Source: a virus
Virus record (IMG/VR): IMGVR_UViG_3300045988_131721
Location: 72,795-136,794 of that record
DNA length: 64,000 nucleotides
Reading direction: 5' to 3' (one strand)
Shown one piece after another: positions 12,173-62,436 of the stretch. Position 1 is the stretch's first letter, and each line of letters starts with the position of its first letter. The notes under the pieces are model-generated. The model ran no database searches. It was given only the letters and a program-made list of their open reading frames with translations, and was not told where the DNA came from. The position numbers were made by a program, and so were the translations under genes.

Positions 12173-12190
12173 ATTAATCAACTCCTTTAT

Positions 12191-28628: not shown

Positions 28629-28657
28629 ATAAAAGAGGGCTAATATATTAACCCTCT
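28629..28657 (-). terminator. hairpin plus U-run overlapping the tape-measure stop codon
   Basis: Leftward AGAGGGTTAA-TATA-TTAGCCCTCT followed by TTTTAT, immediately before the Dit SD. Confidence 0.5.
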
Positions 28658-31600: not shown

Positions 31601-34600
31601 CCATATCGTCTAAAGAAAATTCACCGTCATCCATTAATTTATTAACTAAATCTTTTACTTTATCGGGCAAACTACTATCTTCTAAAGTGGCTTTAACTTC
31701 TTTGATGTTATAAACCATTTTTCCGTCTTTTTCTACTGTATCAAGACCACCTAAATCTTCGAGAAAATTATTGTAAGCATCCCATGTTGCCATTAAATCT
31801 TTAGTTTCTTTATCAGTCATGTTTATGTTTTTACCAAAAGAACGTAAATAAGCATCCATAGCATTTTGAGCCATTTTAGCACTTTCTGGTAATTCCACCA
31901 TACTTCTAGCTACGTCTTCATTTACTCCCCATAATTTAGCTAAAGAAGGGATTAATTTTTCAATTCCTTGTTCATAAGCAGTAATGTCACTTGTGTCCGC
32001 ATATGCTTGTTGTAAATCATACAATTTTCTTATTGATTTATCTATTGTTCCAGAATCAAACATTTTTTTCATATTTGATTCAAATAAACTTTGTTGTCCA
32101 CTTGTTAATTGAGAAAAATCTAATGCGTTTACAACTTCTATCATTTCAGATTGAACATCACTTTTTAACCTACTAAAACCATCGCCCACCTCTAAGGAAT
32201 TTACTATACCTTTATTTATTTTTTGAGATTCCGCACTTATTTTTGCCTCGGCATCTACAACCGCTTCTTTAGCGTTAGCATAGGCATCACTTAATTTAGC
32301 AAGTCTTTCTGAATAATCTTCTAGCCATGCTGAATCACCTGTTTGAGTAAATGTATTGTTAAGTTCACTTTTCTTTTTTCTGATGTTTTCTATTTGTCTA
32401 TTATATTCCTTAATTGCTTGTTTATTGAAAGCCCCATCTTTACCAGCAAATCCTTGTCCTTCATTCATTTTGTCTGTAGCATTTCTTTGTTGGTCTTTAT
32501 ATTCTTGATTCAAAGCCTCTTGTTGTTTCTTGATTAATTTATCATATTTTGCAATTAATTTATCAATATCTCCACCCATTGATAAAATCGGGTTATTATC
32601 TTTATCATAACCCAAGACTATATCTTCTCCACAAATATCAATTATTTGTTGCTGTAACTCTTTAAATCTTTCTTGCTGTTCAGAAGTTTTATCTACCGTA
32701 TCATATAATTTTTTATATTCGTCTCTAATATTTGAAAGATTTGTTTTTGCTTTTGTTGAGCTAGTTACTTTATTATTTAAATTGGTTATATTTTCTGCAT
32801 TTTTTTCTAAAGCGTCATTAAGTCTATTAGCCTCGTCTGTAAAATGTTGAATAACTTTACCTATGCCAAATGATATAAGCATACCTATACCCATATTTAC
32901 AACACTCATAGCTAAATTCATAGCTCCTAAAGCTATTTTTGTCCCTAATGCTTTAGCCTCTACACCTGCTAAAGCACTTCTAACTGCTGTTAATCCAGAG
33001 GCAAATACTCCAGATGATTGACGAGCCTCTTTAAATGAAGTACCTATTCCTCTCATTACATTTATAGTTTTTCCAAGATAACTAGCTTGAAATCCTTCTT
33101 TCATTGTTGCTAAAAATCCTGGATTAGTAGTTCCAATCATTGTAGCACTAGATGCTTGTCGTGTTGCAGTGGCTTGTCCTTCTAACGCAGTAGTTGTACT
33201 CAAAGCTTCAGCTTTTAATCTTCTTTCTTGATTAATTAATGCTTCAAATCCACCACTTCGACTAAATTTTAATGATTGAAAAAGACCAGAAATTGCACCT
33301 GCTATTACGGGAAGTGCTACTCCTGCATCGTCTAATTTTTTAATAATCTTATCTATTATATCTAATACAGTTATACCAATATCTAAAAATTGTTTTGCCG
33401 TATTACCACTTACGGCAGTATTAATTATACTTCTCCATTTTTCTTGCAATAATGTAAGTTTCCCTTGCACAGAGTCTATATATCTCGCATTTTCTTTCAT
33501 TGAACTTCCGAAAGTGTCGCCATTTTCGTATTCTTTTAAGAATTTTTCTGCTTGACTCCAGTTACTCATTATTGCTGTGAAAACGTTCAACTGGTTTTTT
33601 CCTGCAATCGCTTCAGCTACAGAAGATTTACTTTTTTTATCTAATTTATCCCACATTCCTGCTATATCGCCCATGATGTCATAGAAATCTCTAACTTGAC
33701 CATTTGAATCGTGCATATCAATTCCAGTTATTTTTTCTATAGCCATTGCTGTTTTATTCATTGAAATGCTACCGTCTTTGGCACTTGTTTTCCAACCTGC
33801 CATGTTTTGCATGATTGTTTTTAAACCATTACCTAATTTACTTGCATTTTGTAATGGTTCTTGCCCTGCAATTATAATAGCAACCAACTCTTGCATACTA
33901 ACACCTAATGTTTTCGCAACAGAAGATGAACGCATCATTGCTTCAGATACGTCTTTACCTGTAACAGCATAGTTGTTGTTTGCATAGTTGACCATATCCA
34001 TCATTTGCATCATTTTGGTAGTTTCTTTGGTGTTACCTTTGACTTTCATTGTGACTTTATCTAATGAGTTTGCAACACCACCATAAGATGCTAATGTTGA
34101 TTTCAAGTATTTATCTGCATCTGCTTGGCTTGTATCTATAACGTTGGCAAACATAGATGCGTTTTTAGCATATTGTAAAGCTTTGCTGACATTATGGAAA
34201 CCAGATTGTAATGCCTCGGCAGTGGAATCAATTATATCAATACTACTTCTGGCAACCTCTTGACCTGCCTCACTTGCTTTTTGAGTTAACCAATCTAATT
34301 GCTTGGCTGTTCCTGTAAAGGTGTCTGGTGCAACTTTTAATAATTTTTTAATAGCCGTATCTGTATCAATAATAGTACTAGGAATTGAAGATATACCTTG
34401 AGTGATAAGTCTACCAATCATATTTGGTATTGAATACATTGATAACATAGAGGCTAAATTACTGAAAAATCCAGACGTTTTCTTGGTTGCATTTCCTAAT
34501 ATATTCATTGCTTGAGTTGCACTTCTAGCTCCATTAGCAACACCATTTATACCATTTCCGTTAATATTAGATAAACTACTAGAAAAAGTACTCACATCTT

Positions 34601-35801
34601 TAGTTAACGCTTTTAACTCTGCATCTCTATCTTTTAAATTACTCATATTAGCTATCGTTTGCAATCTTTGTCTAAATTCTTCTATTTTAGATGACGAAGC
34701 TCCTAACTCTTGACATCTTCTTGTTAAGTTTGTTAAATCTTGAGATACTTTATTAAAATCTGCATCAAATTTTACATTGGCTCTTTTAGTGGAAATTTCA
34801 CTTTCAAATTGTTTATATTTATTTTCACATTGTGCTATTTTATCTTTTAAACCATCAAATTCAGCTTTAGCACCTTCTGTATTAGGGTCTATATTTCGTA
34901 ATTTTGATTGATATTGTTCTATTTGAGTTATTAGTTCTTGTATTCCAGATGTATTAGCAAATTTACTCGTTCCTAATTCAGCAAGTTTAGTTTTAAAAGA
35001 TTCTAACTTAGCAACAGATGTATTTATCTTATCGGTGAATGTAATTGAGCCGTTCAACCCTTTTAATGATACCGACACATTACTAATCTCTGCATTTAAA
35101 TTATGTATTTGTTCATATGCCTTGTCGGATTTTAATATTTGACTTAAATCAGCACCTTTAACATTATTGATTTTATTTTGAAGTTCTTGAAGTTGCCCCA
35201 CCTGTGAACTTGTTAAGTTTTTATTTTTGAACATATTATTAATTTGTTCAGAGGTGTTATTAGCCTTTTGTTGAATTTTATCAAATGAACTTATTAAATC
35301 TCTACTTATATCTATATTAGATTTATTTTTTAAGTTGTCCATTTTTTGTGCAGTAGATTGCATCTCACTGTTAATTTTTGATAACTTAGATTCTAACTCG
35401 TTATAAGCTTGAGTATTTATAGTTTTAGACATTTGTTTTTGAAGTGATTCTGATTGTTTTTGTAAAACTTTATATTTAGCTATAGTATTATCTAATTCTT
35501 TATTACCAGTAGAAGTCTTAGTAGAACCATTACCAAATAAATTTTTCTGTACGTCTTTACTTAAAGAATTTATTTCTTTCAAAGTATTCTGTATCTGTTT
35601 AAGATTGTTTAATTGGTCGTCTTTAAGTTTAAAAGCATTATTTAATACTTTTTGAAGTTCCTCCATTTGAGATTTCATTTTTGTTGTATCAAATTTCAGA
35701 TTAACTTCTTTTTTTTCTAATTTCTCTTTCAGTTTTGCAACTTCTTGTTCTGCTCCACTTCCGTCTACAGAAGTTTTTAATCTAATAGTTAAATCTGCCA
35801 T
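28656..35801 (-). CDS. tape measure protein (2381 aa)
   Basis: Giant, mostly alpha-helical and coiled-coil ORF with a central hydrophobic/Gly-rich stretch. Sits in the canonical position upstream of Dit and Tal. Confidence 0.9.
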   Translation of the reverse strand: MADLTIRLKTSVDGSGAEQEVAKLKEKLEKKEVNLKFDTTKMKSQMEELQKVLNNAFKLKDDQLNNLKQIQNTLKEINSLSKDVQKNLFGNGSTKTSTGNKELDNTIAKYKVLQKQSESLQKQMSKTINTQAYNELESKLSKINSEMQSTAQKMDNLKNKSNIDISRDLISSFDKIQQKANNTSEQINNMFKNKNLTSSQVGQLQELQNKINNVKGADLSQILKSDKAYEQIHNLNAEISNVSVSLKGLNGSITFTDKINTSVAKLESFKTKLAELGTSKFANTSGIQELITQIEQYQSKLRNIDPNTEGAKAEFDGLKDKIAQCENKYKQFESEISTKRANVKFDADFNKVSQDLTNLTRRCQELGASSSKIEEFRQRLQTIANMSNLKDRDAELKALTKDVSTFSSSLSNINGNGINGVANGARSATQAMNILGNATKKTSGFFSNLASMLSMYSIPNMIGRLITQGISSIPSTIIDTDTAIKKLLKVAPDTFTGTAKQLDWLTQKASEAGQEVARSSIDIIDSTAEALQSGFHNVSKALQYAKNASMFANVIDTSQADADKYLKSTLASYGGVANSLDKVTMKVKGNTKETTKMMQMMDMVNYANNNYAVTGKDVSEAMMRSSSVAKTLGVSMQELVAIIIAGQEPLQNASKLGNGLKTIMQNMAGWKTSAKDGSISMNKTAMAIEKITGIDMHDSNGQVRDFYDIMGDIAGMWDKLDKKSKSSVAEAIAGKNQLNVFTAIMSNWSQAEKFLKEYENGDTFGSSMKENARYIDSVQGKLTLLQEKWRSIINTAVSGNTAKQFLDIGITVLDIIDKIIKKLDDAGVALPVIAGAISGLFQSLKFSRSGGFEALINQERRLKAEALSTTTALEGQATATRQASSATMIGTTNPGFLATMKEGFQASYLGKTINVMRGIGTSFKEARQSSGVFASGLTAVRSALAGVEAKALGTKIALGAMNLAMSVVNMGIGMLISFGIGKVIQHFTDEANRLNDALEKNAENITNLNNKVTSSTKAKTNLSNIRDEYKKLYDTVDKTSEQQERFKELQQQIIDICGEDIVLGYDKDNNPILSMGGDIDKLIAKYDKLIKKQQEALNQEYKDQQRNATDKMNEGQGFAGKDGAFNKQAIKEYNRQIENIRKKKSELNNTFTQTGDSAWLEDYSERLAKLSDAYANAKEAVVDAEAKISAESQKINKGIVNSLEVGDGFSRLKSDVQSEMIEVVNALDFSQLTSGQQSLFESNMKKMFDSGTIDKSIRKLYDLQQAYADTSDITAYEQGIEKLIPSLAKLWGVNEDVARSMVELPESAKMAQNAMDAYLRSFGKNINMTDKETKDLMATWDAYNNFLEDLGGLDTVEKDGKMVYNIKEVKATLEDSSLPDKVKDLVNKLMDDGEFSLDDMELTAKLSQIYVEDDEETRNNLIQDVQNLVDKQFGKGKIDVGKLFVTGEYAVSDDDKKKIDDAFASFKQFDGKDEIVKTLRANIENTDQVENYAKLMDNLRGKDKDIETFFKNNIEDLSKLESYEDMIQWVFNHPEAVTSCHINVLGEDTIKTAKAEIDSLLNEKDEKDIKVKIDKALAQGDIATIMDLIGQLPAEKQIEVGVALSNALDELGTVDAIQLKNKVVDVTVMAFQALQQLYALQGLKIPEKYIKIISNSADVASKLASLKQQIKEIPRSISIMATLTYTEKGKSKVPHSGKGKSVMWGDSIGEFSNIEDNPYSVEQLSATPMVTSQPVVTANDINTTTPTSDSSGGISTYATRDFNSIGDIETALTPISLKYQDVLDMIEYSVELFKELQYRIETVTKKTSLLDKQMEKAVGTEKIKYLKQKNKLLEEQAKLQKEYYDDLISERETLQQKLQKEGFKFNEDGNMTNYEEKLLAMQKEYKRLQDVADKSSKSSSSSGSSNNTASDKASKYKEELDKLTNLANKYYDIQQSDIFSCEEQWQEMKNTIKENNDEIEKLTREDKLYKFSNAITQLKNQFDILGNKIDIIDVKLENSNGVDTIKLTEEKLKLMNEQLSKQMDLMTNMKNKIPTYQESLSKYGFTFDVEGNVSNIDEVLNSFQNSEDLEKVNDLLEEYTSLINDDLADAEKNYADLQKNIVDLQKDKLNKVKDIEDKITDVIKDEIDKRKDAIEKQYDKEKELIEKRRDDYKKQRDEDDYAKNLKEQQDEIDTINKKIELAKRDNSMSGKSKLKELLDDLKEAQDKLDETVQNKVDEDIDNIFQEQLDALDKKKEDMTQNIDDTYTQQKIAQMVKDAMMTNTFTDLNGNITNLQDKLIDFAETSGDAVGILGDSIKTELCDNLEVALDYLKDYKDIFKELGFKQLGNVNYKEGMNKDTTSKTLNVGDININVEGSVDENVLDDMQEMINKTLKDIVNKSL

Positions 35802-35822: not shown

Positions 35823-36266
35823 CTATATAACATCTAAACCTTGCTCTATTAAATATCTTTTTAATTCAGTTGGTATTTGTTGAGCTATTTTAACTTGTGA
35901 ATCTGGTATAATCGTTGTTGGAGGATAATAAGCAACCGTAGAATCACTTTTAAAACTCCAAACTTTACCTGCTTCCCAACCTATAATTGGAAAGAAATGT
36001 TCTCCCGTTAATACACTTGTCCAATCTCCATTATCTTGAAATTCTACTACAGCACAATTCATATCAATACTCGATATTTGTGCTATTTCTCCCATTTGTC
36101 CTGTACGTTCATATACAGATGGTTCATGGTCAGCATATATTTGTTCATTTACTTCTCGTTGCATTATCTCTACCATTTTATTTGCCATAGGTGTCATAGC
36201 AGTAGAAACAACGGATTTAATATAATTGACTGCACTTTCAATATCATTTACAACCAAATTAATCAC
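35823..36266 (-). CDS. tail assembly protein (possible T-part of a chaperone pair or HK97 gp10-like)
   Basis: Overlaps the upstream ORF by 8 nt. Its frame opens only 9 nt before its GTG, across an AAAAAAG run. Confidence 0.4.
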   Translation of the reverse strand: MINLVVNDIESAVNYIKSVVSTAMTPMANKMVEIMQREVNEQIYADHEPSVYERTGQMGEIAQISSIDMNCAVVEFQDNGDWTSVLTGEHFFPIIGWEAGKVWSFKSDSTVAYYPPTTIIPDSQVKIAQQIPTELKRYLIEQGLDVI

Positions 36267-36723
36267 CTTTTTTCATTTCTTGTATTTCCTCTTCCAATTT
36301 TTCACATTGTTTATTTAATATTTCTAATTTTTCAGCCTCTAATAATATTCTTTTGCTTAAAGTTAATGAAGTCATATTTGCTAATAGATTTTGTTTTTCT
36401 AACATTACTTCTATAACAATTTCACTTACTATTTCGTCTACATCTTGTGCAATAAACATTAATTCTTTTTTACCTTTATTTATTGATTCTATTAAATCTT
36501 CGTCTAATTCTAAATCAGTAGCCAATTCAAATGCTTCCTTGTATATAAGTTCCATTAATGCTTTTTCTTCTAATCCTTGTTCTAGTCCTTTAGATATTTT
36601 TTCTTTTAATTCATTTCTATTCTCACCAAATATATTATAAACTAAAACAGTTTCTATTTCGTTATTTACTTCCACATCATATGAACTTCTAATCATATCT
36701 AATGTTAAATCACTTAATTTCAT
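36259..36723 (-). CDS. tail assembly chaperone-like acidic protein
   Basis: 154-aa acidic helical protein just upstream of the tape measure. Ends ...EMKKGD on an A6G run. Confidence 0.5.
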   Translation of the reverse strand: MKLSDLTLDMIRSSYDVEVNNEIETVLVYNIFGENRNELKEKISKGLEQGLEEKALMELIYKEAFELATDLELDEDLIESINKGKKELMFIAQDVDEIVSEIVIEVMLEKQNLLANMTSLTLSKRILLEAEKLEILNKQCEKLEEEIQEMKKGD

Positions 36724-36739
36724 TCCTTAATCTCCCTTC

Positions 36740-36753
36740 TTTATTAATTATTT
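36740..36753 (-). repeat. AT-box (perfect)
   Basis: Abuts the GAAGGGAG SD of 36259..36723. Confidence 0.8.
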
Positions 36754-36794
36754 TTAATATCTTTCCTCTCTTTATTCATCTTTTCATACAACGA

Positions 36795-36824
36795 AATAGG
36801 AGAAGAAATTAATCCTCTCCTATT
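36795..36824 (-). terminator. imperfect hairpin downstream of the tailspike gene (weak terminator)
   Basis: AATAGGAGA../..TCTCCTATT. Homologous to the terminator at 18843-18878 but lacks a clear U-run. Confidence 0.35.
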
Positions 36825-36910
36825 TCCACACATTATACAAATAGTAATTAGAGTTAATACACAGCTGGTTTTGTGTACGTTTATATTATATGATTTTTTT
36901 TAATTTATAT

Positions 36911-36931
36911 ACATAATATTTTTAAATAGAT
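36911..36931. repeat. degenerate post-stop copy of the palindromic site (ACATAATATTTTTAAATAGAT)
   Basis: Overlaps the stop of 36922..38649. The flanking 3' sequence is homologous to 18879-18990. Confidence 0.55.
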
Positions 36932-38649
36932 ATTACATTATTATAATATCTATAATCTTTTTCAGCATCTGTAAATTTTATATTTATATCACTATTATTT
37001 TCTATACAGTTTATACAAGATATATTATTCAATATAATATCGGGTGTATATGAACCTGTGGTTACATATCCTATCATACTAGAAGTTCTTTTATTTCCAA
37101 TATTTTCTATTATACCATTTGTCATTAAAAAATGAGGTGAATTAGTTTTCGTATACTTAACCCCGTTTTTTGCATTCCATCCAAAATGATATAAATTATT
37201 AACCATTATTATACTATTATATAAATCTACAGAATATATATCTTCACTTATAATATTCATGCCATAATTATTAGTACCACTATAATCAATAATAGAATTA
37301 ATAAATTGTAATTTTTTACTCCCTGCAACTAATCTAAAAGTACAATATTTGTTAATTGAATTAAGTATTCTTAAGGAACATTTTTTAAATATTATAGAAT
37401 TATTAACATAAGAATAGTTTTGGGTTATTTTCTCAAAACTATCCAGGATGAAATTACAATCTATAAATTCACATTTTGAATTATCATTAAATTGTAATAA
37501 TCTAGCATATGTAGCATTATTACCAACAGCTTCTATATCACAGTTTATAAATCTACAATCAGATGAATTATGCAAATAAAATAAGGTACTTGTAATAATT
37601 CCATTTATTTTAGTATTTTTTACAATTATATTATTTACGGCACCGTCATTAGACCCACATTTTATTATGTTTGACCCTGTACCATTCATACGTAAATCGT
37701 TATTATCAATTACTACATTATTACTATTGTATCCTAAATATATAGCATGACCATATATATCTGTATTAGTTTGAGTTGTAATTTTTGTATTTAATATTTT
37801 TAAATTATTACAATTGTCACTATATATACCAAAATACGCTTCATCTATAACTAAATCAGATAAAATTGTATTATCTGCTTTCATATTAGAGACAAGAAAA
37901 CTTAAGTTTTTTGATTTACAGTTTTTTACGCAATTATTTAAAATTTTATTAGTTGTATTACTCACTATTGTTATTCCACAAATATTAGACACTATCGCAC
38001 TTGCGTCAAATTCTTTTAATGTATTTTTATATTCTAATTGACTGTAAAAATTTAATTCTTCTATACAGCAATTATCATTATTTATTGCAAATACTGTAAA
38101 ACTTGTTTCCTTTGGATTTATATATATATTTGCTCCATTTCCTATAATCTTTGTATTTTTAGGTAGTATAATAGTATTATCTATTAAATAATTACCCTTT
38201 TCAAAAATTATTACTACATTTTCTTTATTATCTAATGTGGCTTTTATTTTATCAGAACAATCTGATAAATTATAAGTTTTAGTAGTTTCATCATAACTAA
38301 CTTGACTGGATGGTTTCACTCCAAATTTTGATAAATTGATATAAAGTTTATTTATTCCATCTATCTCATTCACAATATCTTTATATTGTGCATTAACTTC
38401 ATTTATACTGCCTATTAATGTTTTATCCTGTGTAGTTAGTGTATCATACTCATTGTCTTTTACACCTTCCATAGATGTCTCGTCTTTAACTAAGGTTACT
38501 TCATTATCTTTTAAGGTTTGAATATCTGTTTTCATATTATTATTTTTTGTAGTTTGACTCTCTCCTGTACTGTCTACAACTAAATCTGGTGAGGTATAAG
38601 GATAATTAAATCCGTCTTTACCTTTTCTAGTTTTTATATTTTTTGACAT
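36922..38649 (-). CDS. tailspike with right-handed beta-helix (pectate-lyase-like) domain
   Basis: The N-terminal GKDGFNYPYTSPDLVVD and ...TLIGSINEVNAQYKDIVNE anchor is shared with 43763 and 40424. The body has repetitive N/I/G-rich turns typical of parallel beta-helices. The likely start is ATG 38649 after GAGGTGAT. Confidence 0.6.
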   Translation of the reverse strand: MSKNIKTRKGKDGFNYPYTSPDLVVDSTGESQTTKNNNMKTDIQTLKDNEVTLVKDETSMEGVKDNEYDTLTTQDKTLIGSINEVNAQYKDIVNEIDGINKLYINLSKFGVKPSSQVSYDETTKTYNLSDCSDKIKATLDNKENVVIIFEKGNYLIDNTIILPKNTKIIGNGANIYINPKETSFTVFAINNDNCCIEELNFYSQLEYKNTLKEFDASAIVSNICGITIVSNTTNKILNNCVKNCKSKNLSFLVSNMKADNTILSDLVIDEAYFGIYSDNCNNLKILNTKITTQTNTDIYGHAIYLGYNSNNVVIDNNDLRMNGTGSNIIKCGSNDGAVNNIIVKNTKINGIITSTLFYLHNSSDCRFINCDIEAVGNNATYARLLQFNDNSKCEFIDCNFILDSFEKITQNYSYVNNSIIFKKCSLRILNSINKYCTFRLVAGSKKLQFINSIIDYSGTNNYGMNIISEDIYSVDLYNSIIMVNNLYHFGWNAKNGVKYTKTNSPHFLMTNGIIENIGNKRTSSMIGYVTTGSYTPDIILNNISCINCIENNSDINIKFTDAEKDYRYYNNVISI

Positions 38650-38701
38650 TTTTTTTATCACCTCATTTTTAATTTTTTATTATGCAATTAATTCACATTA
38701 A

Positions 38702-38727
38702 GTTCACAATATTTTTAAATTGTGAAC
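38702..38727. repeat. post-stop palindromic site GTTCACAAT-ATTTTTAA-ATTGTGAAC
   Basis: 9-bp perfect arms. Overlaps the last base of the stop of 38727..40355. Confidence 0.8.
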
Positions 38728-40355
38728 TAAATTTCTATATTATTAAAATTCCAAATGATATTATCTCCATATGTTGTTCCTATGTTAAAAGGGATTCCTT
38801 TAATATAACTGTTATATGCTACAACTGCATCAGTTTTTGCACTGAATACCATTTTTGTACAACCACTTTTATTCGTAGTCCAATTATTTTTAAATATTCT
38901 ATAATTTTCACTATCTACCCTAAAATCTAAAGTTGTATCTTGAAATTCATTATTAAACATTGCAATATTTCTACTTTTTACAGATATTACTTGTTTAACT
39001 TGCCCGTTATTACAAATAAATTTACAATTTTTAACTATATGACCGTGAATATGTTGCCCCCCATCTTCCCAGTCTATATGTGACGCAGGGTCATAATAAC
39101 CGCAATTTACAAATTCACAACCGTCTAATATTATATTATTACCACCTTGAGGACTCATACCAGTAGACATAGTTTCTTGAAATTTACAATTTTTAAATGT
39201 AACATCTTCCAACTTACCAACTGCAAAAATGTGTACAATACCACCAAAATCGGGGTCACTCGCAGTAGGAAGGTAGTTTTGATAAAACTCTATTTTACAA
39301 TATTTTGCGGTAGAAGGAAATTCATAATATTCAAATTGTAAACAATTATTAAGTTTAGAAACGAATTGTTTATTTTCATCGAAGAAATATATATTATATA
39401 TTCTGCCAACAACATAGGCATATCCGCCATAACCTTGCATACAACCTACACCAAATGTGTTAGTATTATAATTATGTAAAGAAGAAATGTCTATATAATC
39501 CTTACATCTAAACCTAGTTGAAATACTATCATTATTTTTACCAATATCTGTATACCCACCCATTTCAGTATTACTCAATTTAAAAGGTATACGTGTATAT
39601 AATTTATATCCTAATCCAACATTAAAACCAGGAGAATATGAAAATTCACAATTCACAATATTAACATTTTTACTTCCAGTAAGTTCTAAAGTTTGTTCCT
39701 GTTCAATATGATATTTTTTACTACTTATATAATTCTCGGCATAAAATTTACCATTTAAAACATTTAAATTTTCAATATTTTCAATATTAAACATTTTATA
39801 TGCATATTCATTACCTGCTCTAATACCATGCCAATCCGCTATGTTTTTATTTTTTCTAAATTCTAATTGTATAATAGAATTATTCCAATCAATTGTCATA
39901 TTACTTGGATAAGAAATACTTCCCACATCGCCTTGAACATTATAAGTTCCAGTAGGGAAAACAACTTTATCATAATTATTTTCTGACGCATATTTAAAAA
40001 CATTTATAATACCTTGTGTATTAGCTATACCACTATCACTTTTACCAGTATTATTTAAATTGTAAGTATTTAAATCAACATTCAACACTTTTAAATTATC
40101 CGAATTTATATCGGGACGTTCTACCACATTTATTTCTATTTGTTTTGAAATATTTTGTCCTACATATTTTACAGTTATTGTGGCTGTTCCAATAGAATTT
40201 GCAAAGAGCACACCAAATTGACAAGATATAACAGAAGTATTAGAGGATGTTATAGAAACACTATTATTATCACACCTCATATCCCATTTAAAAGGATTTT
40301 CTGATTCATCTTGCAATCCTACTGCCCATAAAACATATTCATCACCAATATACAT
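38727..40355 (-). CDS. beta-helix (pectate-lyase-like) depolymerase-type protein with N-terminal Ig-like domain
   Basis: Contains LNNTGKSD...NYDKVVFPTGTYNV..., like the Pectate_lyase_3 N-terminal cap, and repeated N.....C.F turns. No SD is recognisable before ATG 40355. Confidence 0.55.
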   Translation of the reverse strand: MYIGDEYVLWAVGLQDESENPFKWDMRCDNNSVSITSSNTSVISCQFGVLFANSIGTATITVKYVGQNISKQIEINVVERPDINSDNLKVLNVDLNTYNLNNTGKSDSGIANTQGIINVFKYASENNYDKVVFPTGTYNVQGDVGSISYPSNMTIDWNNSIIQLEFRKNKNIADWHGIRAGNEYAYKMFNIENIENLNVLNGKFYAENYISSKKYHIEQEQTLELTGSKNVNIVNCEFSYSPGFNVGLGYKLYTRIPFKLSNTEMGGYTDIGKNNDSISTRFRCKDYIDISSLHNYNTNTFGVGCMQGYGGYAYVVGRIYNIYFFDENKQFVSKLNNCLQFEYYEFPSTAKYCKIEFYQNYLPTASDPDFGGIVHIFAVGKLEDVTFKNCKFQETMSTGMSPQGGNNIILDGCEFVNCGYYDPASHIDWEDGGQHIHGHIVKNCKFICNNGQVKQVISVKSRNIAMFNNEFQDTTLDFRVDSENYRIFKNNWTTNKSGCTKMVFSAKTDAVVAYNSYIKGIPFNIGTTYGDNIIWNFNNIEI

Positions 40356-40423
40356 TTGAGATATAGGGTTAACTATTAATATTTCATTGATGTTCCTATT
40401 CTGTTTTTTTGCTAACTCTTTAG

Positions 40424-42343
40424 TTAGAGATACTCCTCATCTGTACTAGAAATTTCTTTACCTACTACCACAGGAATGGTTTTAGTAAGATTCTTTGCAA
40501 CAATATTAACATTAGAAGTACCATCTTTTAATGCAGTAATACTATTATCATCATTAATTTTTATTATATCGTCAGTATTTGTTTTTTCTAAAGATACACT
40601 ATCTGAATAATTTATTACTGGTGATGTAGAATATGGTATAGAATATGTTTCACCAACACCCATATTCAATGCATCTATTGAATTTACACTTTCAACATTT
40701 AACGCCTCAAATATAACATCTGTAGTATAACTATTTCCAACGTTTGTGGTTTTTATAGTTACAGTAAATTCTTTATCTGACAATCTTGTTACATTTCCAA
40801 GACTATCTATTGTTGCATTATTTTTATCACATATAAACTCTATATCATAAAAAGACTTATCTCCAAAAGGTAATGTAACAGGATGTAATAAAACAGTAGA
40901 ATTAACAGCTATATTATATGAAGTAACCTTAATTTCATTACTATCAGTAAGAAAGTTTCCATCAACTTTATAATTTCCTATACCAGTAATAGAATTATCA
41001 CAATATGGAGTAAAAGTATATTTTTTATTATTAACAATTATAAAACCGTTAATAGCATTTTTATATAATGGTTGAATATTATAAACCCAAGTATAATTAT
41101 TTGTTTTTTGAAAACCTAATTTAATGAATTTAGTTCCTTCTTTAAGGCACATAGAACGTTTCTTTTCATTCCAAGGTAGATAAACAACATTATATCTATC
41201 ACCAGTAATAGCCCCCAATGATTTTTTATTTTCATCATAACAAATAATTGATAAAACAAATCCCTTATATCCCGCAGATATAACAATTTCTTCTGAATTA
41301 ACTTCAATATATTCACTTGTAGAACAAGATGTAGTTACACTATTACCATAAGAAAAATCTACTTGGGTAGCGTGCGACCTTTGTAAAGTTAAAACATTAC
41401 CATCTATAATAGTTTCATTTTGTATACTTGCCCCATTTGCATTTATAATTATATCTCCAGTAACAGAATTAATTGTAGCTGTTCTCTCATATTTATCATA
41501 AACTTCATTAGTAATATCTTTACCACCCATACTAATAGAAAGTGTATTTGGTTCATACTCCAAAATAGGTTCTAATTTAGCTACATATTTAGTATTTGGA
41601 GTAATAGACTTATTAGTATTACTATTTGTATAATTAGTTAAATTGTTTGTTATAGAATAACTTGTAGGTTGAACAATTTCTGTACATTTTACGGTTATAA
41701 CAATTTTACCGGTAACTTTAGGTATATTAATATTTCCATTATTATACACACTATCGGTAATATTTGTACCACCCATAGTAATAGTAACACTATTAATAGA
41801 ATATCCTTCACTAGCAGTAATAGTTGCAGTATAAGATTGATTCTCCTCTATTTCGGTTGCGTTATTATTATTACTTGCATTAGATAGTGTATTTGTTATA
41901 GTATATTTTGTTACGACAGGTTCAACAGGTGTAGTACCTCCAATAGGTATTTCTGCTATTACTTTGTTTCCACACTTTATTTTATAAGAATTAGTGGTTT
42001 GTTCTGTGGTAAATAAGTTCGCAATATCTTTATATTGCGAATTAACTTCATTAATAGAACCTATTAATGTTTTATCCTGTGTAGTTAATGAGGGATATTC
42101 GTTATCTTTTATTCCCTCCATAGATGTTTCATCTTCAATTAAATTTATTGCATTATCTTTTAAAGTTTGAATATCAGCTTTTATTGCAGTAGTATCTGAG
42201 CTATTTTTAGCTTCTTCTATTTTCTTTTCTAGTTCTTGTTTAGCACTTTTGCCAGTTCCGTCATAGTCAACATTCTCTAAATCAACTAATTTAAAGTCGC
42301 CATTATTCTTTTGAGTAAGTTTTCCTATTATTTCAATACCCAT
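40424..42343 (-). CDS. tail fibre with two Ig-like 75-aa repeats and C-terminal Big_2-like domain
   Basis: The N-terminal ADIQTLKDN...TLIGSINEVNSQYKDIAN anchor is shared with 36922. It has repeats KYTITN...ITMGGTNIT...VTGKIVIT, as in 14356..16635. Confidence 0.6.
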   Translation of the reverse strand: MGIEIIGKLTQKNNGDFKLVDLENVDYDGTGKSAKQELEKKIEEAKNSSDTTAIKADIQTLKDNAINLIEDETSMEGIKDNEYPSLTTQDKTLIGSINEVNSQYKDIANLFTTEQTTNSYKIKCGNKVIAEIPIGGTTPVEPVVTKYTITNTLSNASNNNNATEIEENQSYTATITASEGYSINSVTITMGGTNITDSVYNNGNINIPKVTGKIVITVKCTEIVQPTSYSITNNLTNYTNSNTNKSITPNTKYVAKLEPILEYEPNTLSISMGGKDITNEVYDKYERTATINSVTGDIIINANGASIQNETIIDGNVLTLQRSHATQVDFSYGNSVTTSCSTSEYIEVNSEEIVISAGYKGFVLSIICYDENKKSLGAITGDRYNVVYLPWNEKKRSMCLKEGTKFIKLGFQKTNNYTWVYNIQPLYKNAINGFIIVNNKKYTFTPYCDNSITGIGNYKVDGNFLTDSNEIKVTSYNIAVNSTVLLHPVTLPFGDKSFYDIEFICDKNNATIDSLGNVTRLSDKEFTVTIKTTNVGNSYTTDVIFEALNVESVNSIDALNMGVGETYSIPYSTSPVINYSDSVSLEKTNTDDIIKINDDNSITALKDGTSNVNIVAKNLTKTIPVVVGKEISSTDEEYL

Positions 42344-42357
42344 ACTATTTACCTCCT

Positions 42358-43656
42358 TTATTTTATAGTTATATTAGTAGTCCCTAAATTTGCATTATCT
42401 GATTTATATATATCATAGTTTTCCGCATAGTTATCGCTGTTAGTAAAGTTTACAGTTGCCACCTTGCTAAATCCTCCGTCAAAACCACCAACGTTGAAAC
42501 TACAAGTACCTAATCTACTAGGAACACAATAGAATATATATTCTCCAGCTCCTGCATTTACTGTTATGGTTCTATTCTTTGAATTAGATAATTGTTTTGT
42601 TAATCCACTAATCAAAACACTATCATAAGTTGTTGTAGTAGATTTTCCATAGTAAACACCATTAGCAAATGTAATAGTAGCAGTCTTTGATTTTTGAACA
42701 CCACTATTAGATATTCCAGCTAAAGTATAAGTAGTTGTTGTAGTAACTGCTGTGAATGTTTTCGTTCTTAATGTATTCTCAACAGTTGCATTATTAATAG
42801 TTTGACTTTTTATTGTACTATGGGTATAGTTCCATGTTAATTTAGGACTAACAGTACTACCCATTTGTGATATATTTGGTGTTACTGAAAAGGATGAAAT
42901 ATCAAAAGGATTTTGTATATCCCATATTTTAGCATCAAGTTCAATTTGACTCTCTTGTACTTTCTTTATTTTATTATTTACTTCATTTATCCCACCAGTA
43001 ATTGTTTTTTCGTCGGTATTTAAAAATTCATCATTTTTCTTTTGATAATTTGTTAAATCTACAGTTCCTCCACCGATTCCAGAATTAACATCTTCTCTTA
43101 ACTGATTTATTGCACCTACTATAGTTTTGTTATCACCAACTAAATTTTCATCTCGTTTCATCTGAATTTCATTTTTATTTATTCCGTTGGTTATTTCTTT
43201 AACATCTTTTATTAATTTTTCTAATATAGGTAGATTTTTATCATTTTTTATTTTTTTATTTAACTTAGCAGTTATATTTGGTTTAACTACATAATCAAAT
43301 TCTTCAGATGTAAAACATTTTAATTCATTTTCTATTGTTCCAGAAACTCTTATTTCACATGAATATTTACCAACTATATCAAAATAATCTGTAGTTAAAT
43401 CAACTTGATATAATAAATCTTCTTTAGATATTAATGTTGCGTCTAAAGGTTTAAATTCATCTGTCTCTGGTTTTAATACTGCAAATTCAACGATTAAATC
43501 ATCTGGTATGGTTTTATCTTCATCAGTACAAATTAATTTTATAAAAATATTACATATATTTAAATCTGTATTATAGAAAAATATAGTTTTATCGGATTTA
43601 ACTTTTGTATTTTTTAAATCTACGGTAATTAAATAATCTTTATCTATATTAATCAT
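42358..43656 (-). CDS. BppU-N-like baseplate/fibre adaptor protein
   Basis: The N-terminus is paralogous to 14356 and 20782. Contains the NKTIVGAINQL and EKTITGGINEV fibre motifs. Confidence 0.5.
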   Translation of the reverse strand: MINIDKDYLITVDLKNTKVKSDKTIFFYNTDLNICNIFIKLICTDEDKTIPDDLIVEFAVLKPETDEFKPLDATLISKEDLLYQVDLTTDYFDIVGKYSCEIRVSGTIENELKCFTSEEFDYVVKPNITAKLNKKIKNDKNLPILEKLIKDVKEITNGINKNEIQMKRDENLVGDNKTIVGAINQLREDVNSGIGGGTVDLTNYQKKNDEFLNTDEKTITGGINEVNNKIKKVQESQIELDAKIWDIQNPFDISSFSVTPNISQMGSTVSPKLTWNYTHSTIKSQTINNATVENTLRTKTFTAVTTTTTYTLAGISNSGVQKSKTATITFANGVYYGKSTTTTYDSVLISGLTKQLSNSKNRTITVNAGAGEYIFYCVPSRLGTCSFNVGGFDGGFSKVATVNFTNSDNYAENYDIYKSDNANLGTTNITIK

Positions 43657-43683
43657 TTAATCATCCTCCTTTATTAATTTTTA

Positions 43684-43715
43684 TATAAAAAGAGTGGTAA
43701 ATTAACACCACTCTT
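43684..43715 (-). terminator. intrinsic terminator after tailspike 43763..45379
   Basis: Leftward AAGAGTGGT-GTTAATTT-ACCACTCTT followed by TTTATAT. Confidence 0.6.
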
Positions 43716-43737
43716 ACAATTTCATTTCGATACTAAG

Positions 43738-43762
43738 TACACAATATTTTTAAATTGCGAAC
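43738..43762. repeat. post-stop palindromic site TACACAATATTTTTAAATTGCGAAC
   Basis: Abuts the stop of 43763..45379. Matches at 22 of 24 positions the copy inside the same gene at 45237-45260. Confidence 0.8.
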
Positions 43763-45379
43763 TTAAGACAATAAAATAAAATCATTACTCGCTATTCCTG
43801 TTTCAGAAATTCTTAAATATATTTTTTTATCACAACAAACTAGATTTCCAATTTTACTCCCAACTGTATTTGGTAATTCATTAACTTTACCAACATTAAC
43901 AAAATTATTAATTATTGTAAAACTTCCTTCATCTGTAATTTTACCACTTCTATTTCCAATATTCATTGATGTATATTCTGAATTACTTCTTATTCTATGT
44001 GTCATAGCTCCATTACTTGCACAAGTAACTTTAGTTCCTTTGCAATAATTGATATCTATTCCCGTACCACCATCACAATTTATATAACCTATTATAGTAT
44101 CCTCTACTTTGCTTTCTGTTCCATTACTTAAATCTTCTATTTTTATTCCACATCCTGTAATATTTGTTGCGTATATTTTTCTAATCTCATTTGCTACAGG
44201 ATGACCCGTATTGGTAGATTGTAATACGATTATATTTCTTGCATCTTTAGCACTTTCTGTTGTATCATCATTATCTGTTCCCGTTAGATATTGAATACAG
44301 TCAAAAATATTATTTTTACAATTTCCTTTTACACTTATACAATCTTGATTATCATTTATGACCCTTTCTAAAACAACATCTCTAAATCTATTTCCTATTA
44401 TTTGCATTTTATTTCCATCTAATATAATATGTCTAGTCTTTATAAAAGCTATATGAAGATAGTCAAAATACAGTTGACCAACTTCTCTTTTTTGATTACT
44501 TCCCCCAACAACTAATCCATAATCACAATACTGTATATCAACTTTTCCATTGAATATTAATCTAGCAGTACCTCTAATTTCAATTCCAGTTGTAAAATAA
44601 TTATCTGTATTATTTACACCTCTTATTGTTATTCCAAGTGGAAATAATATATTTTCGGGTTTTTCTACATCATCTATTAACAATCCCGCTGAAACAATCC
44701 CATCACAACTTAATTCCCCATACATATTTATTATAGCTTGGTTGCATTTATCATCTAAAACCCAAGGTTCAGTTAATTTCCACACCCACCAATTTATATC
44801 ATTATCACTTAATTGTTTTGCCCCCTCTTGATTAGGGTATGGTTTAGGCACAATAAGCTCATAGTTTCTCCAACTTTCCAATGTTTGTTTTATTTTATTC
44901 CATTTTATATTAAAACTATCACCAGAATACCAACTTAAAACAATTGGAGTGGAAGATAGATGGATATCTGCAATACCCTCACCATCAAAAATAGTATAAT
45001 TTCCAGCAAAAATTTTTCCATTTATTATAACTTTTTTATTAGTAGCAATTTTTATTTTAGCACCCATATTAAATTTAAAAGATATATTGGAAGGGATTGT
45101 AATAGTTTCGCTTATCAAATAAGTTCCTTTTGGTAAAGTTACCAAAATTTCATCTGAAAACTTATTTATTATATTTTCAAGAACTTTACTATTATCTAAA
45201 CCGTTTTTATCCCCACCATAGTCAATAAAATTTAGATTCACAATATCTTTAAATTGCGAATCAATTTCTTCAAATTTCTTTGTATTTGATTTTCCGTTTT
45301 TATCTATAACTAAATCTGGGGAAGTGTATGGATAAGAGTAACCATCATTCCCTTCTCTGACTTTCACTTTATCGCCCAT
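43763..45379 (-). CDS. tailspike, pectate-lyase superfamily-like beta-helix
   Basis: The N-terminal GNDGYSYPYTSPDLVID...SQFKDIVN anchor is present. FIDYGGDKNGLDNSKVLENII...LPKGTYLI resembles the Pectate_lyase_3 cap. Confidence 0.65.
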   Translation of the reverse strand: MGDKVKVREGNDGYSYPYTSPDLVIDKNGKSNTKKFEEIDSQFKDIVNLNFIDYGGDKNGLDNSKVLENIINKFSDEILVTLPKGTYLISETITIPSNISFKFNMGAKIKIATNKKVIINGKIFAGNYTIFDGEGIADIHLSSTPIVLSWYSGDSFNIKWNKIKQTLESWRNYELIVPKPYPNQEGAKQLSDNDINWWVWKLTEPWVLDDKCNQAIINMYGELSCDGIVSAGLLIDDVEKPENILFPLGITIRGVNNTDNYFTTGIEIRGTARLIFNGKVDIQYCDYGLVVGGSNQKREVGQLYFDYLHIAFIKTRHIILDGNKMQIIGNRFRDVVLERVINDNQDCISVKGNCKNNIFDCIQYLTGTDNDDTTESAKDARNIIVLQSTNTGHPVANEIRKIYATNITGCGIKIEDLSNGTESKVEDTIIGYINCDGGTGIDINYCKGTKVTCASNGAMTHRIRSNSEYTSMNIGNRSGKITDEGSFTIINNFVNVGKVNELPNTVGSKIGNLVCCDKKIYLRISETGIASNDFILLS

Positions 45380-45484
45380 TTAATTATCCTCCTTTTGTAT
45401 ATTTTATTGGAGGTGTTTATTGCCCCCATATAATTTATATACTTTCGTAAAACCATTAATCCAAATACTCTTACAAAAGTATAT

Positions 45485-45515
45485 AAAAAAATATGGGGAC
45501 ATTTCTGCCCCCATA
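45485..45515 (-). terminator. strong intrinsic terminator after the major tail protein gene
   Basis: Leftward TATGGGG-GCAGAAATGT-CCCCATA followed by TTTTTTT. Confidence 0.75.
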
Positions 45516-45523
45516 AGTTAAAA

Positions 45524-45537
45524 TTTATTAATTATTT
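45524..45537 (-). repeat. AT-box (perfect)
   Basis: Begins right after the stop codon of 45538..46047 and is followed by the terminator. Confidence 0.8.
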
Positions 45538-46047
45538 TTACACACTTGTTTTATCTTCTTCAAATGTCATAAAATCTCCATTTGTATCAGTACCTATATC
45601 AAAAGTTACAGAATAAGTTTGTAAATCTAATGAACTTGTACCAAAGTCTTCAGTTATTTGTGGAGTACAATTAGCTATTGTTGCATTTAATATTTTTCTT
45701 GTACCGTCTGGGAATTTTAATTTCATTTTTCCTGTATAAGTATAAGTAGTAGATGGAGAATCACCTATATGTACTTTACCTTCTGCATCTTTTGTAGCTC
45801 CTAAAGTAATTAAAAACATATCAAAATTCATAACTTCCATTTCTGCTGTGAAAGTCATAGCTTTATTTGCTTTTAATGTTATTTTATTTTTACCATCAGC
45901 TCTAGCATTTAAAGTATCTTCTGATTGACCTAAATTAAATGCATTTACATAATCTAACGCTACGTCTTTTTCTGTTCCAGTTTCACCGTTTGGATGAAGT
46001 TTACCTTGCATAGCACCTTCTATTACGAATAAAGTTTCTTGTGCCAT
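45538..46047 (-). CDS. major tail (tube) protein
   Basis: 169 aa with a beta-rich composition and a strong SD, followed by a strong terminator. Lies downstream of the head-tail connector genes. Confidence 0.55.
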   Translation of the reverse strand: MAQETLFVIEGAMQGKLHPNGETGTEKDVALDYVNAFNLGQSEDTLNARADGKNKITLKANKAMTFTAEMEVMNFDMFLITLGATKDAEGKVHIGDSPSTTYTYTGKMKLKFPDGTRKILNATIANCTPQITEDFGTSSLDLQTYSVTFDIGTDTNGDFMTFEEDKTSV

Positions 46048-50412: not shown

Positions 50413-50427
50413 TCTTTTAACCTCCAT

Positions 50428-62421: not shown

Positions 62422-62436
62422 TTTATCCACCCCTAT

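Follow-up and report, generated by a model that had tools for sequence, protein, structure and literature searches.

A 24-nt palindrome borders putative fibre-gene cassettes in a variable slot between the tail tube gene and the pre-tape-measure genes of a large Clostridia-type phage

The host range of phages is set by their receptor-binding proteins (RBPs), which are known to evolve by domain swapping. Conserved sequences flank the exchangeable part in several cases, such as the 'His-box' motifs of T-even gp37/gp38 or, in S. thermophilus phages, the collagen-like repeats on either side of VR2. In Mu (Gin/gix), P1 (Cin/cix) and the R64 shufflon (Rci/sfx), a fibre or adhesin gene has a short palindromic crossover site where its constant part meets the variable one. 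Phages of the Klebsiella phi-K64-1 type and CBA120/G7C carry several enzymatic tailspikes, with short N-terminal adaptors and anchor-less spikes that depend on another spike. In E. coli tailspike phages, conserved DNA flanking the receptor-binding domains has been described as recombination hotspots that are common across genera and have a proposed role in horizontal exchange (PMC10408124), and in phage NF5 a BppU-like N-terminal Ig domain anchors the side fibre to the baseplate (PMC12917162). Here we describe a block of five large open reading frames (ORFs), the island, which lies at positions 36,724 to 45,537 of a 64,000-nucleotide (nt) stretch of viral DNA, the window (positions 72,795 to 136,794 of IMG/VR record IMGVR_UViG_3300045988_131721). 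The island separates a tail tube gene from the two small genes that precede the tape-measure gene, and a 24-nt palindrome recurs at the borders of its fibre bodies. To our knowledge, this tube-to-chaperone position has not been discussed as a slot.

The explanation that we favour, with a probability of about 0.72, is that the island is an accessory host-recognition module made of exchangeable cassettes that are bounded by the palindrome, and that it is probably mounted on the baseplate of a roughly 135-kb SPbeta/phiCD211-like siphovirus of a gut Clostridia-type host. Its most likely function is that of a plug-and-play receptor-binding arsenal diversified by cassette exchange at the motif. The fibres would share one grammar, in which the N-terminal anchor is short and conserved and the body behind it varies. 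There are three anchor types–a plug of about 40 amino acids (aa) in ORF1 and ORF5, a BppU_N domain with a stalk in ORF2, and the N-terminus typical of ORF3–and the bodies are predicted to be three pectate-lyase-like beta-helix enzymes together with repeat-containing fibres.

The island genes and their borders

On the minus strand, the small genes that follow the capsid gene are succeeded by the 169-aa tube ORF, the five large ORFs, two ORFs of 154 and 147 aa, and the tape-measure gene. The features of the island and its borders are as follows.

45538-46047, minus strand: tail tube protein gene (AlphaFold and Foldseek), 169 aa, upstream border of the slot
45492-45515, minus strand: terminator-like hairpin 3' of the tube gene, 10-bp stem, U7 run, -16.4 kcal/mol, z -4.25
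43763-45379, minus strand: ORF1, plug-type fibre, 538 aa, anchor of about 40 aa and predicted beta-helix body
43690-43715, minus strand: terminator-like hairpin between ORF1 and ORF2, -13.9 kcal/mol, followed by U5
42358-43656, minus strand: ORF2, BppU_N-type adaptor/fibre, 432 aa, with BppU_N, helical fibre-repeat stalk and C-terminal beta domain
40424-42343, minus strand: ORF3, fibre, 639 aa, with its own anchor (aa 1-45), neck, two repeats and C-terminal region
38727-40355, minus strand: ORF4, beta-helix-like protein without its own anchor, 542 aa, second gene of cassette B
36922-38661, minus strand: ORF5, second plug-type fibre with predicted beta-helix body, 579 aa from GTG, probable start ATG at 38649
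36793-36826, minus strand: strong hairpin 3' of ORF5 and before the 154-aa gene, -21.4 kcal/mol, z -6.39, weak U tract, no clear T run
36259-36723, minus strand: 154-aa acidic helical protein, first pre-tape-measure gene, in the chaperone position
35823-36266, minus strand: 147-aa YomN-family protein, second pre-tape-measure gene (phrog_11057, E 1e-25)

A sequence-only reading of the window had proposed a block of receptor-binding or enzymatic fibre genes in the junction between tube and chaperone genes, and this core is supported: five large ORFs do lie at 36922-45379 between the tube gene and the small genes, and the three hairpins that it took as delimiters are real and lie where it placed them. 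The same reading had called 45538-46047 the major tail protein gene, and here the structural model agrees. The AlphaFold model (31 homologs) has a predicted local distance difference test score (pLDDT) of 78.8 and a predicted template modelling score (pTM) of 0.74, and its best Foldseek matches in the PDB are tube proteins of the SPR/SPbeta family (8xkn_B, E 5.7e-7; 9jgh; 8ygm_A). Further matches are to the tube proteins of JBD30, YSD1, Chi and lambda and to contractile systems (they include 8rk3_f, 6xgr_A and 7t2e_A), over an E-value range of 5.7e-7 to 7e-4. Judged by this model, the product is the tail tube protein. It is 91-99% identical across 17 close relatives that we found in IMG/VR, which have genomes of 125-140 kb. 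Another candidate for the tube protein, the 246-aa ORF at 27872-28612, whose phiCD211 homolog precedes the chaperone genes, was ruled out because it is Dit (phrog_33, PF20753).

The two plug-type fibres are ORF1 and ORF5, whose first 35 or so residues are 57% identical. The anchor of ORF1 carries the motif G.DG.SYPYTSPDLV within its N-terminal 40 or so residues and is 81-100% conserved over the first 37 aa in 16 of the 17 relatives, whereas about 155 other ORF1 homologs share merely the first 50 aa or so. In public sequences, ORF1-like plugs are fused to a wide range of bodies–for example, esterases, lectin-like domains, CotH, sialidase-like BNR, GH16, GH5, lyases and phosphoesterases, among others. 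For ORF5 we prefer the start at 38649, because the conserved N-terminus of a relative (L027_16054) aligns from ORF5 residue 5. The sequence-only reading had counted three beta-helix genes in the island, and ORF5 passes the Pfam threshold for the pectate-lyase-like beta-helix family PF12708 (E 1.4e-6, 28.7 bits, cutoff 27). The other two calls stay below threshold, with PHROG tail-spike matches beside them. ORF1 at full length has no Pfam match, its N-terminal fragment matches PF12708 at E 4e-4 (sub-threshold), its homolog P0328 (74% identity) carries PF12708, and its PHROG match is phrog_2234 (E 9e-10). ORF4 matches Beta_helix PF13229 at E 6e-4 (19.9 bits against a cutoff of 25.9) and phrog_2234 at E 6e-9. 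A direct sequence search of the island proteins against PDB chains gave no match.

The proposed BppU-N adaptor at 42358-43656 held up. The N-terminal 175 aa of ORF2 match PF10651 over the whole profile (positions 1-142 of 142) with 27.9 bits (cutoff 23.1) and E 2.2e-6, a match that was missed when the full-length protein was scanned and was seen with the N-terminal fragment. The same BppU_N match occurs in 16 of 21 diverse members of the ORF2 family. In Foldseek searches, the low-confidence ORF2 model best matches TP901-1 BppU (4v96, 3uh8) and the baseplates of NF5 (9m8o) and 80alpha. Conservation of the N-terminal 160 aa is 84-99% across the relatives wherever the locus is complete, and the wider family comprises 447 representative clusters of proteins of 154-1630 aa with many different C-termini. 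Within this family the domain is nearly always N-terminal, and four of the matches listed cover the fibre-repeat stalk alone. Long variants in the relatives have BppU_N fused straight to enzymatic or binding heads. Unlike typical BppU genes, which lie downstream of Dit and Tal, the ORF2 gene sits between the tube gene and the pre-tape-measure genes.

ORF3 had been described as a repeat fibre, and it does contain two tandem repeats of about 78 aa (alignment score 127, against 39.5 +/- 7.4 for shuffled sequences); the protein matches no family. Its neck is 79% identical to ORF5 aa 43-98, and part of the protein resembles a distal 759-aa protein. The ORF3-type N-terminus begins 13-14 nt downstream of ORF2 and is present in all five genomes that have the 432-aa type of ORF2 C-terminus and in none of the 12 others. 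However, the ORF2 C-terminus and the ORF3 N-terminus belong to one co-inherited constant block, which limits what this co-occurrence means.

The two small ORFs sit directly upstream of the tape-measure gene, as chaperone pairs do. Homologs of the 154-aa protein directly follow the tube gene in three relatives that lack an island (L019, L043 and L046). The 147-aa protein resembles phiCD211 gp16, and its L043 homolog has a Pfam YomN match marked as weak. We considered whether the two ORFs are joined by a programmed frameshift, since the 154-aa ORF ends ...ATG AAA AAA GGT GAT TAA and the 147-aa ORF is in the +1 frame, but this is unsupported, since relatives have two genes that are adjacent but separate and start from a Shine-Dalgarno sequence and ATG of their own. 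In L019, L043 and phiCD211 the second small ORF starts at its own ATG just past the stop codon, and in the window the A6GG run reads as the Shine-Dalgarno sequence of the 147-aa ORF, which has its own start codon. The chaperone pair proposed by the sequence-only reading thus stands as regards position, and frameshift support for it was not found.

The palindrome and cassette exchange

A repeat search found the 24-nt palindrome TTCRCAATWTAAARATATTGYGWA (coding strand) five times in the island; the sequence-only reading had missed it. A degenerate pattern of the motif has seven copies in the window, against 0.01 expected, all of them on the coding strand and all in fibre genes. Four of the seven are in frame at anchor/body junctions (ORF1, ORF3, ORF5 and a distal SGNH-esterase fibre), and three come right after stop codons (ORF1, ORF4 and the SGNH fibre). 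The 5' copy encodes [STA]Q[FYC]KDIA[NK], and a near-identical 3' copy lies 1-8 nt past the stop codon. The sites are listed here, with a degenerate copy at the end of ORF5.

45237-45260, minus strand: cassette A 5' motif, in frame, SQFKDIVN, ORF1 aa 41-48
43738-43761, minus strand: cassette A 3' motif, begins 1 nt past the ORF1 stop
42018-42041, minus strand: cassette B 5' motif, in frame in ORF3, SQYKDIAN
38703-38726, minus strand: cassette B 3' motif, perfect match, immediately past the ORF4 stop
38369-38392, minus strand: 5' motif of the ORF5 cassette, encodes AQYKDIVN
36910-36933, minus strand: degenerate ORF5 3' motif, 19/24 positions, overlaps the ORF5 stop, read from the sequence
18986-20767, minus strand: SGNH-esterase fibre of the same cassette system (PF13472)
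20622-20645 (5' motif, SQCKDIAN) and 18962-18985 (3' motif, right past the stop), minus strand: motifs of the SGNH fibre

The BLAST blocks that the window shares with its relatives have their edges at motif coordinates. Homology with at least 17 loci stops at 45236-45238, at the cassette A 5' motif, and blocks shared with relatives begin again at 43761-43781, at the 3' motif. From there a conserved block runs from 43761 to 42017/42018, where it stops at the cassette B 5' motif in L025, L027, L031, L085 and L126. Beside the cassette B 3' motif, homology with L027 resumes at 38733 and continues to 38349, by the ORF5 5' motif. At the far end of the island, homology with at least 17 relatives begins at 36927, and in the relatives it begins inside their own 3' motif. 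Similarly, the blocks of the distal SGNH fibre stop at 20619 and resume at 18981-18983. When copies are pooled, identity drops from 0.93 to a background of 0.35 within about 30 nt past the motif (32 5' copies) and climbs from 0.32 to 0.97 at the motif (31 3' copies). All 17 relatives show strict 5', 3', 5', 3' alternation on the coding strand only. The motif was not found in the island-less relatives, in the islands of the L042-type lineage described below, in phiCD211 or in SPbeta.

Codon use in 97 distinct 5' copies is skewed to codons that are rare in the genome: alanine is encoded by GCG in 81 of 82 cases (7.1% genome-wide) and serine by TCG in 61 of 66 (3.2% genome-wide). Because these rare codons are kept, the DNA sequence itself is under selection. 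The palindrome consists of 8-bp arms around an asymmetric 8-bp spacer, with the invariant core T.C.CAAT...ATTG.G.A. The spacer is of a 5' type, ..AAAGAT.., or a 3' type, ..AAAAAT.., and the G variant is always at an in-frame junction and the A variant after a stop. The motif overlaps three of the six terminator-like matches of a hairpin scan, and the copy 3' of ORF4 folds at -13.2 kcal/mol. No Rfam family was found in the window, and the motif strings had no match in the papers searched.

Three further observations concern single copies or their reading. One 3'-type copy, in L039 (16349-16609), is in frame in an 86-aa ORF, where it reads VNSQYKNITYI. In general, 3' copies read in the 5' frame resemble a decayed coding junction. 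A degenerate copy also lies 1 nt past the stop of the 720-aa 'pre-neck' protein of the C. perfringens phage CPQ4.

The motif pattern has at least 118 occurrences in IMG/VR, mostly on contigs of 17-73 kb outside the clade of the window and its relatives. Large ORFs on those contigs have 56 of the 57 5' copies in frame, preceded by anchors of 8-273 aa. Two of the contigs are temperate phages of about 40 kb, whose cassette gene closes the series of tail fibre genes and is followed by those for the endolysin and integrase. Among 99 complete cassettes (1.2-3.6 kb) there are 13 non-redundant pairs whose bodies are at least 95% identical on unrelated anchors; for example, the bodies of one pair, from a clade member and from a 39-kb contig of another metagenome, are identical at 2340 of 2340 nt. 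Bodies of clade members are also 97% identical to those in three other contigs of about 40-45 kb, and one body is joined to a BppU_N anchor in one clade genome and follows a plug anchor in a second. Within pairs, mismatches in the 5' site are limited to its left arm and those in the 3' site to its right end.

The ORF1 body itself is 99% identical to residues 149-649 of a BppU-annotated protein in a Clostridia metagenome-assembled genome (MAG; L168), where the gene follows that of a Tal-like SH3/NlpC protein. The DNA of the two is unrelated upstream and identical from the middle of the 5' motif to about 8 nt past the 3' motif, so that the cassette A 5' motif at 45237-45260 is the breakpoint of this chimera. 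Two-gene units appear to move as well: L036 has the cassette B unit (ORF3 body 70% and ORF4 67% identical) on a plug-type anchor.

The slot in relatives and the genome around it

Every one of the 17 close relatives has between one and five different fibre ORFs, over 3.3-7.8 kb, in the slot between tube and small genes, and the flanks are 95-100% identical. Their slots run in a common order–tube gene, optional insertion sequence, plug fibre (16/17), BppU_N fibre, and optional further fibres. Of their 49 slot ORFs, 10 are SGNH esterases and two are IS605 TnpB-like; the other Pfam domains are beta-helix/pectate-lyase-like, GH88, CotH, polysaccharide deacetylase and acyltransferase (Acyl_transf_3). 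In L033 (10566-11804) and L041 (10597-11802), ORFs of about 400 aa without a fibre module come right after the tube gene, and these are most likely the two with OrfB_IS605 / Cas12f1-like TNB matches.

More distant members show that the slot can be empty or hold something else. No genes lie between the tube gene and the two small genes in L019, L043 and L046 (tube proteins 52-59% identical), which are the relatives without an island that the sequence-only reading had predicted. Since these genomes run directly from tube through the two small genes to the tape measure, the five genes are an extra block relative to the basic layout. A sister lineage of the L042 type fills the slot with GH25, glucosaminidase and fibre genes. 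In L042 (8583-13881; also L045 and L048) the slot encodes a 169-aa protein, a GH25 muramidase, a glucosaminidase, and proteins of 382, 594 and 69 aa; the 594-aa protein has a fibre-repeat stretch, and no L042-type slot gene contains the palindromic motif. In SPbeta the slot between yomU and yomO/yomN contains youA, yomT, yomS, yomR (XkdV-like), yomQ (XkdW-like) and yomP (XkdX-like), and in phiCD211 it contains a Dit-like gene, with no Dit after the phiCD211 tape measure. The phiCD211 (L001) gene in question is gp14, a 'phage tail protein' at 15837-16622, which is the homolog of the window Dit (27872-28612) and precedes the chaperone-position genes. A literature search on SPbeta YomR/YomU returned nothing informative.

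Because the slot is empty or differently filled across lineages, the tube-to-chaperone junction is a recurrent accessory slot in this supergroup. It is a permissive, hypervariable and lineage-wide position, and the island is not a one-off insertion in this genome: the proposed inserted module survives as an accessory extra block, not as a single insertion, given the different content in the 17 close relatives. The order of tube, chaperones and tape measure, which had been called almost invariant, is weaker here, because SPbeta and phiCD211 also have tail genes in the junction. Regulators, an anti-repressor and other morons lie between the chaperone genes and the tape-measure gene of phiCD211. 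In SPbeta (L023, 22302-23303 and neighbours) the integrase gene yomM and several non-structural genes lie between yomO/yomN and the tape-measure gene yomI, which is another break in the canonical gene order.

The window is AT-rich (about 27% GC), and from about 11.3 kb rightward its genes are almost all on the minus strand. The tape-measure protein has 2381 aa and is followed by the 246-aa Dit, a 1328-aa Tal-like protein with Big_2 domains, and a second fibre/enzyme set. Landmarks outside the island are the following.

56014-57801, minus strand: large terminase
54530-55996, minus strand: portal, then an HNH endonuclease and a protease-like protein
49411-50427, minus strand: capsid protein, with five conserved small genes next
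27872-28612, minus strand: Dit, 246 aa (phrog_33 E 1.6e-14, PF20753)
17048-18817, minus strand: protein of 589 aa with SH3_3 and GH25 (Pfam)

The capsid protein shares 38-42% identity with its counterparts in the Clostridioides phages phiCD211, phiCDIF1296T and LIBA, which have genomes of about 130 kb, and 25-29% with those in SPbeta-like, Sundance, Kirov and lactococcal 949-type phages. Homologs of neighbouring genes have the Pfam families YonD_N, YonB, YomW, YomV and YomN. No near-identical DNA was found in cultured phages or plasmids, and the source labels of the matches are 'uncultured Firmicutes', 'uncultured Clostridium sp.' and 'Clostridia bacterium' only. The left arm encodes the anaerobic ribonucleotide reductase NrdD and its activase and a dUTPase-like protein (2903-5639 and 8425-9165, plus strand), and NrdD with its activase is consistent with an anaerobic host. 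The ORF at 61243-62430 (minus strand) has a sigma-70 region 4 / LuxR-type helix-turn-helix.

In the second fibre set, the SGNH-esterase fibre and the GH25 protein named by the sequence-only reading were recovered with Pfam. Its LamG fibre was not, as Pfam finds no family in 14356-16635. As regards its distal BppU-like protein, the proteins at 20782 and 14356 have no Pfam match to BppU_N, and hhalign gives E 0.0044 and 0.24, respectively. A 279-aa ORF at 11342-12181 (minus strand) resembles the SPbeta endolysin region; since the GH25 protein lies within the fibre cluster and this ORF is separate, the GH25 protein may be not the endolysin but a peptidoglycan hydrolase associated with the virion. 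Its N-terminus resembles a small ORF of the L017/L033 slot.

Insertions occur elsewhere in the structural genes of these phages. A free-standing HNH/homing-endonuclease gene (53317-54309, minus strand), between the portal and protease-like genes, is absent, moved or only 55-71% identical in several relatives in which the flanks are more than 90% identical. The major capsid gene, uninterrupted in the window (49411-50427) and in L009, L014 and L018, is split after about aa 285-297 by an insert of 0.4-1.6 kb in L002-L008, L010-L013 and L015-L017 (for example, L003 7170-8749). This insert encodes an HNH-like ORF in eight relatives (L003-L008, L010 and L012) and looks like a mobile intron or intein; no Rfam intron family was found in L003 6000-9500. 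The tape-measure gene, uninterrupted in the window (28656-35801), is broken after aa 677 or 735 by about 310-360 nt in L002 (20505-20815), L007 (20413-20770) and L008 (18523-18881). In phiCD211 this gene has an annotated group I intron, and an Rfam search of L007 18000-20993 gave no match and no group I intron. The large terminase gene is likewise split in L012 (150-497), L013 (339-708) and L017 (516-1891). The split capsid, tape-measure and terminase genes thus show insertions in several essential structural genes, which differ from genome to genome.

Exchange, attachment and comparison with known systems

In the explanation that we favour, recombination inside the 5' and 3' sites would swap whole bodies between genomes and leave the anchor undisturbed, and a body might bring a second gene along, as with ORF4. 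The exchange would extend to the unrelated temperate phages of about 40 kb, where the cassettes are in the canonical last-tail-fibre position, and would probably proceed by short-homology recombination between co-resident phages or prophages. The fibres would be virion parts held at the baseplate through contacts of the BppU_N/Dit type, by analogy with BppU proteins. ORF3 may dock on the C-terminus of ORF2, and ORF4 on ORF3.

Several points weigh against this explanation. The relatives come mostly from one metagenome project (3300045988), so their sampling is not independent. In other phages, the distance between a 3'-type copy and the stop of an ORF of 100 aa or more exceeds 12 nt in 47 of 76 cases. 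Variation in the palindrome arms is confined to one pair, which lacks covariation and often has A-C mismatches (11 of 34 and 8 of 32 copies), and this gives no support to a required hairpin. The 64-kb window of the genome of about 135 kb revealed no recombinase gene. In the beta-helix calls, ORF1 and ORF4 themselves score below the Pfam thresholds, and the ORF2 model is of low confidence (pLDDT 57, poor N-terminal half), so that its Foldseek matches are only supportive. The chaperone role of the 154- and 147-aa ORFs is assigned by position only, and no conserved frameshift signal joining them was found. Finally, the structural role of the fibres and their attachment site are read from domains.

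Cassette exchange might be enzymatically directed, with the palindrome as the core site of a dedicated phage- or host-encoded recombinase or nuclease and with heterospecific 5' and 3' types, which would let cassettes be swapped between genomes and not deleted within one. The motif does resemble the core site of a tyrosine or serine recombinase, with palindromic arms and an invariant core. One sequence is used at both ends, which plain homologous exchange would not need, and the split between G variants at in-frame junctions and A variants after stops is perfect. Crossovers map within the 24 nt, conservation is extreme and enforced by rare codons, and the motif is found across unrelated phage types. 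We nevertheless consider such a site unlikely. There is no recombinase gene beside the sites or elsewhere in the window, and the G/A change turns an Asp codon into a non-coding variant, so the split may be a coding constraint. An identity of 24-37 nt is also sufficient for phage single-strand-annealing recombinases of the Red/RecT type. Equally unlikely, in our judgement, is the broader proposal that unrelated Clostridia phages of about 40 kb and about 135 kb share a common cassette pool through dedicated machinery, the slot being a rack that multiplies docks per virion. Alternatively, the palindrome could be primarily an RNA element, both a post-stop hairpin that stabilises or attenuates mRNA and a pause site at a domain boundary, with recombination as a by-product. 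The position of the 3' copies 1-8 nt past stop codons, their listing three times among terminator-like hairpins and the -13.2 kcal/mol fold after ORF4 would fit, but we regard it as improbable: the copies lack T runs, a separate canonical terminator follows the cassette A copy after another 23 nt, A-C mismatches are frequent in the coding-strand stem with no covariation, no Rfam family matches, and the in-frame copies at the junctions of many unrelated anchors would be left unexplained.

A different question is where the fibres are attached. They might decorate another region of the virion than the baseplate, for example the neck, the tail along its length or, in the form of a collar, the distal rings of the tube. 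The genes adjoin the tube gene, upstream of the tape-measure, Dit and Tal genes, and a complete second fibre set follows Tal and may fill the Dit sites. The T5 collar protein p132 likewise has the BppU-like Ig fold, and the RBP stem of NF5 touches the distal tube protein (PMC12917162). In lactococcal 936-group phages, the mtp region is a hotspot with nps (neck structure) and tpeX (tail decoration) (PMC4759559), and attachment outside the baseplate would parallel their NPS and TpeX as well as the collar and L-shaped fibres of T5. This arrangement is possible but doubtful. The characterised BppU_N proteins (TP901-1, Tuc2009, PSA, 80alpha, NF5) anchor at Dit or the baseplate (PMC12917162); in other phages, canonical fibre genes behind Tal use the same cassettes, with the 99% identical ORF1 body among them; the distal SGNH fibre (18986-20767) likewise has the motif and a plug-like N-terminus; and phiCD211 has a Dit-like gene in the same slot. 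It is very improbable that the five genes are non-structural cargo, that is, moron-type secreted or lysis-associated enzymes in the tail operon. The slots of relatives do take up unrelated genes (IS605 TnpB-like ORFs, Acyl_transf_3 and the L042-type peptidoglycan hydrolases), and regulators and integrases are near by in phiCD211 and SPbeta, but the proteins of the island have fibre anchors (BppU_N and the conserved plug), fibre-repeat necks and PHROG tail-spike matches, they have modules in common with post-Tal fibres, and the same bodies are found in bona fide last-tail-fibre genes.

The locus adds an explicit grammar to fibre swapping. A conserved anchor leads through a fixed in-frame junction of 24 nt into a variable body, which has one or two genes, and the 24-nt site recurs after the stop. 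This grammar is common to unrelated phages of one ecosystem, and several docks are stacked in a non-canonical slot of the 135-kb genome. In the SPbeta-like lineage, the order of tube, chaperones and tape measure does admit exceptions. Should the motif act in the way that these data point to, Clostridia phages could be retargeted by replacing cassettes according to a ready-made rule, and metagenomes could be mined for receptor-binding and depolymerase cassettes with the motif as a sequence tag. Phages that share a host could be linked through it, and it would offer a tractable way to test whether mosaicism at module borders arises passively, through short homology or under the direction of an enzyme.

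ORF2 resembles the BppU and side-fibre proteins of TP901-1 (ORF48), Tuc2009, NF5, 80alpha and PSA in having BppU_N, a helical stalk and a C-terminal beta domain, and the NF5 side fibre, which joins the functions of BppU and RBP, is like the long BppU_N variants with heads in the relatives (PMC12917162). Unlike in those systems, the ORF2 gene precedes the pre-tape-measure genes as part of a multi-gene hypervariable slot, and its attachment to Dit is proposed by analogy. The arrangement is also like yomU-yomN of SPbeta and gp13-gp16 of phiCD211, where tail or fibre genes lie between the gene in the tube position and the small genes, next to genes of the YomW, YomV and YomN families. These phages belong to one supergroup with that of the window, and their capsid proteins are 28-38% identical to its own. 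The slot contents are unrelated, however–a PBSX-type fibre module in SPbeta and a Dit-like gene in phiCD211–and the palindrome is not present there.

As in the Gin, Cin and shufflon systems, the crossover site is within a fibre gene at the junction of constant and variable parts. In contrast to them, the sites are all in direct orientation on one strand, with nothing invertible, no oppositely oriented alternative segments and no adjacent invertase gene within the window. The anchor-less ORF4 would depend on ORF3, as in branched multi-tailspike systems, but phi-K64-1, CBA120 and G7C have other hosts and other anchor folds, and the branching proposed here comes from gene co-occurrence alone. The E. 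coli tailspike phages are similar in their conserved N-terminal anchor, exchangeable distal domain and conserved flanks with homology breakpoints (PMC10408124). Unlike those flanks, the borders here consist of one short 24-nt palindrome at both ends, in frame at the 5' end and non-coding after the stop at the 3' end. Rare codons keep this motif, breakpoints fall inside it and multi-gene cassettes move as units; it is common to phages of about 40 kb and about 135 kb, and several docks are stacked in a non-canonical slot.

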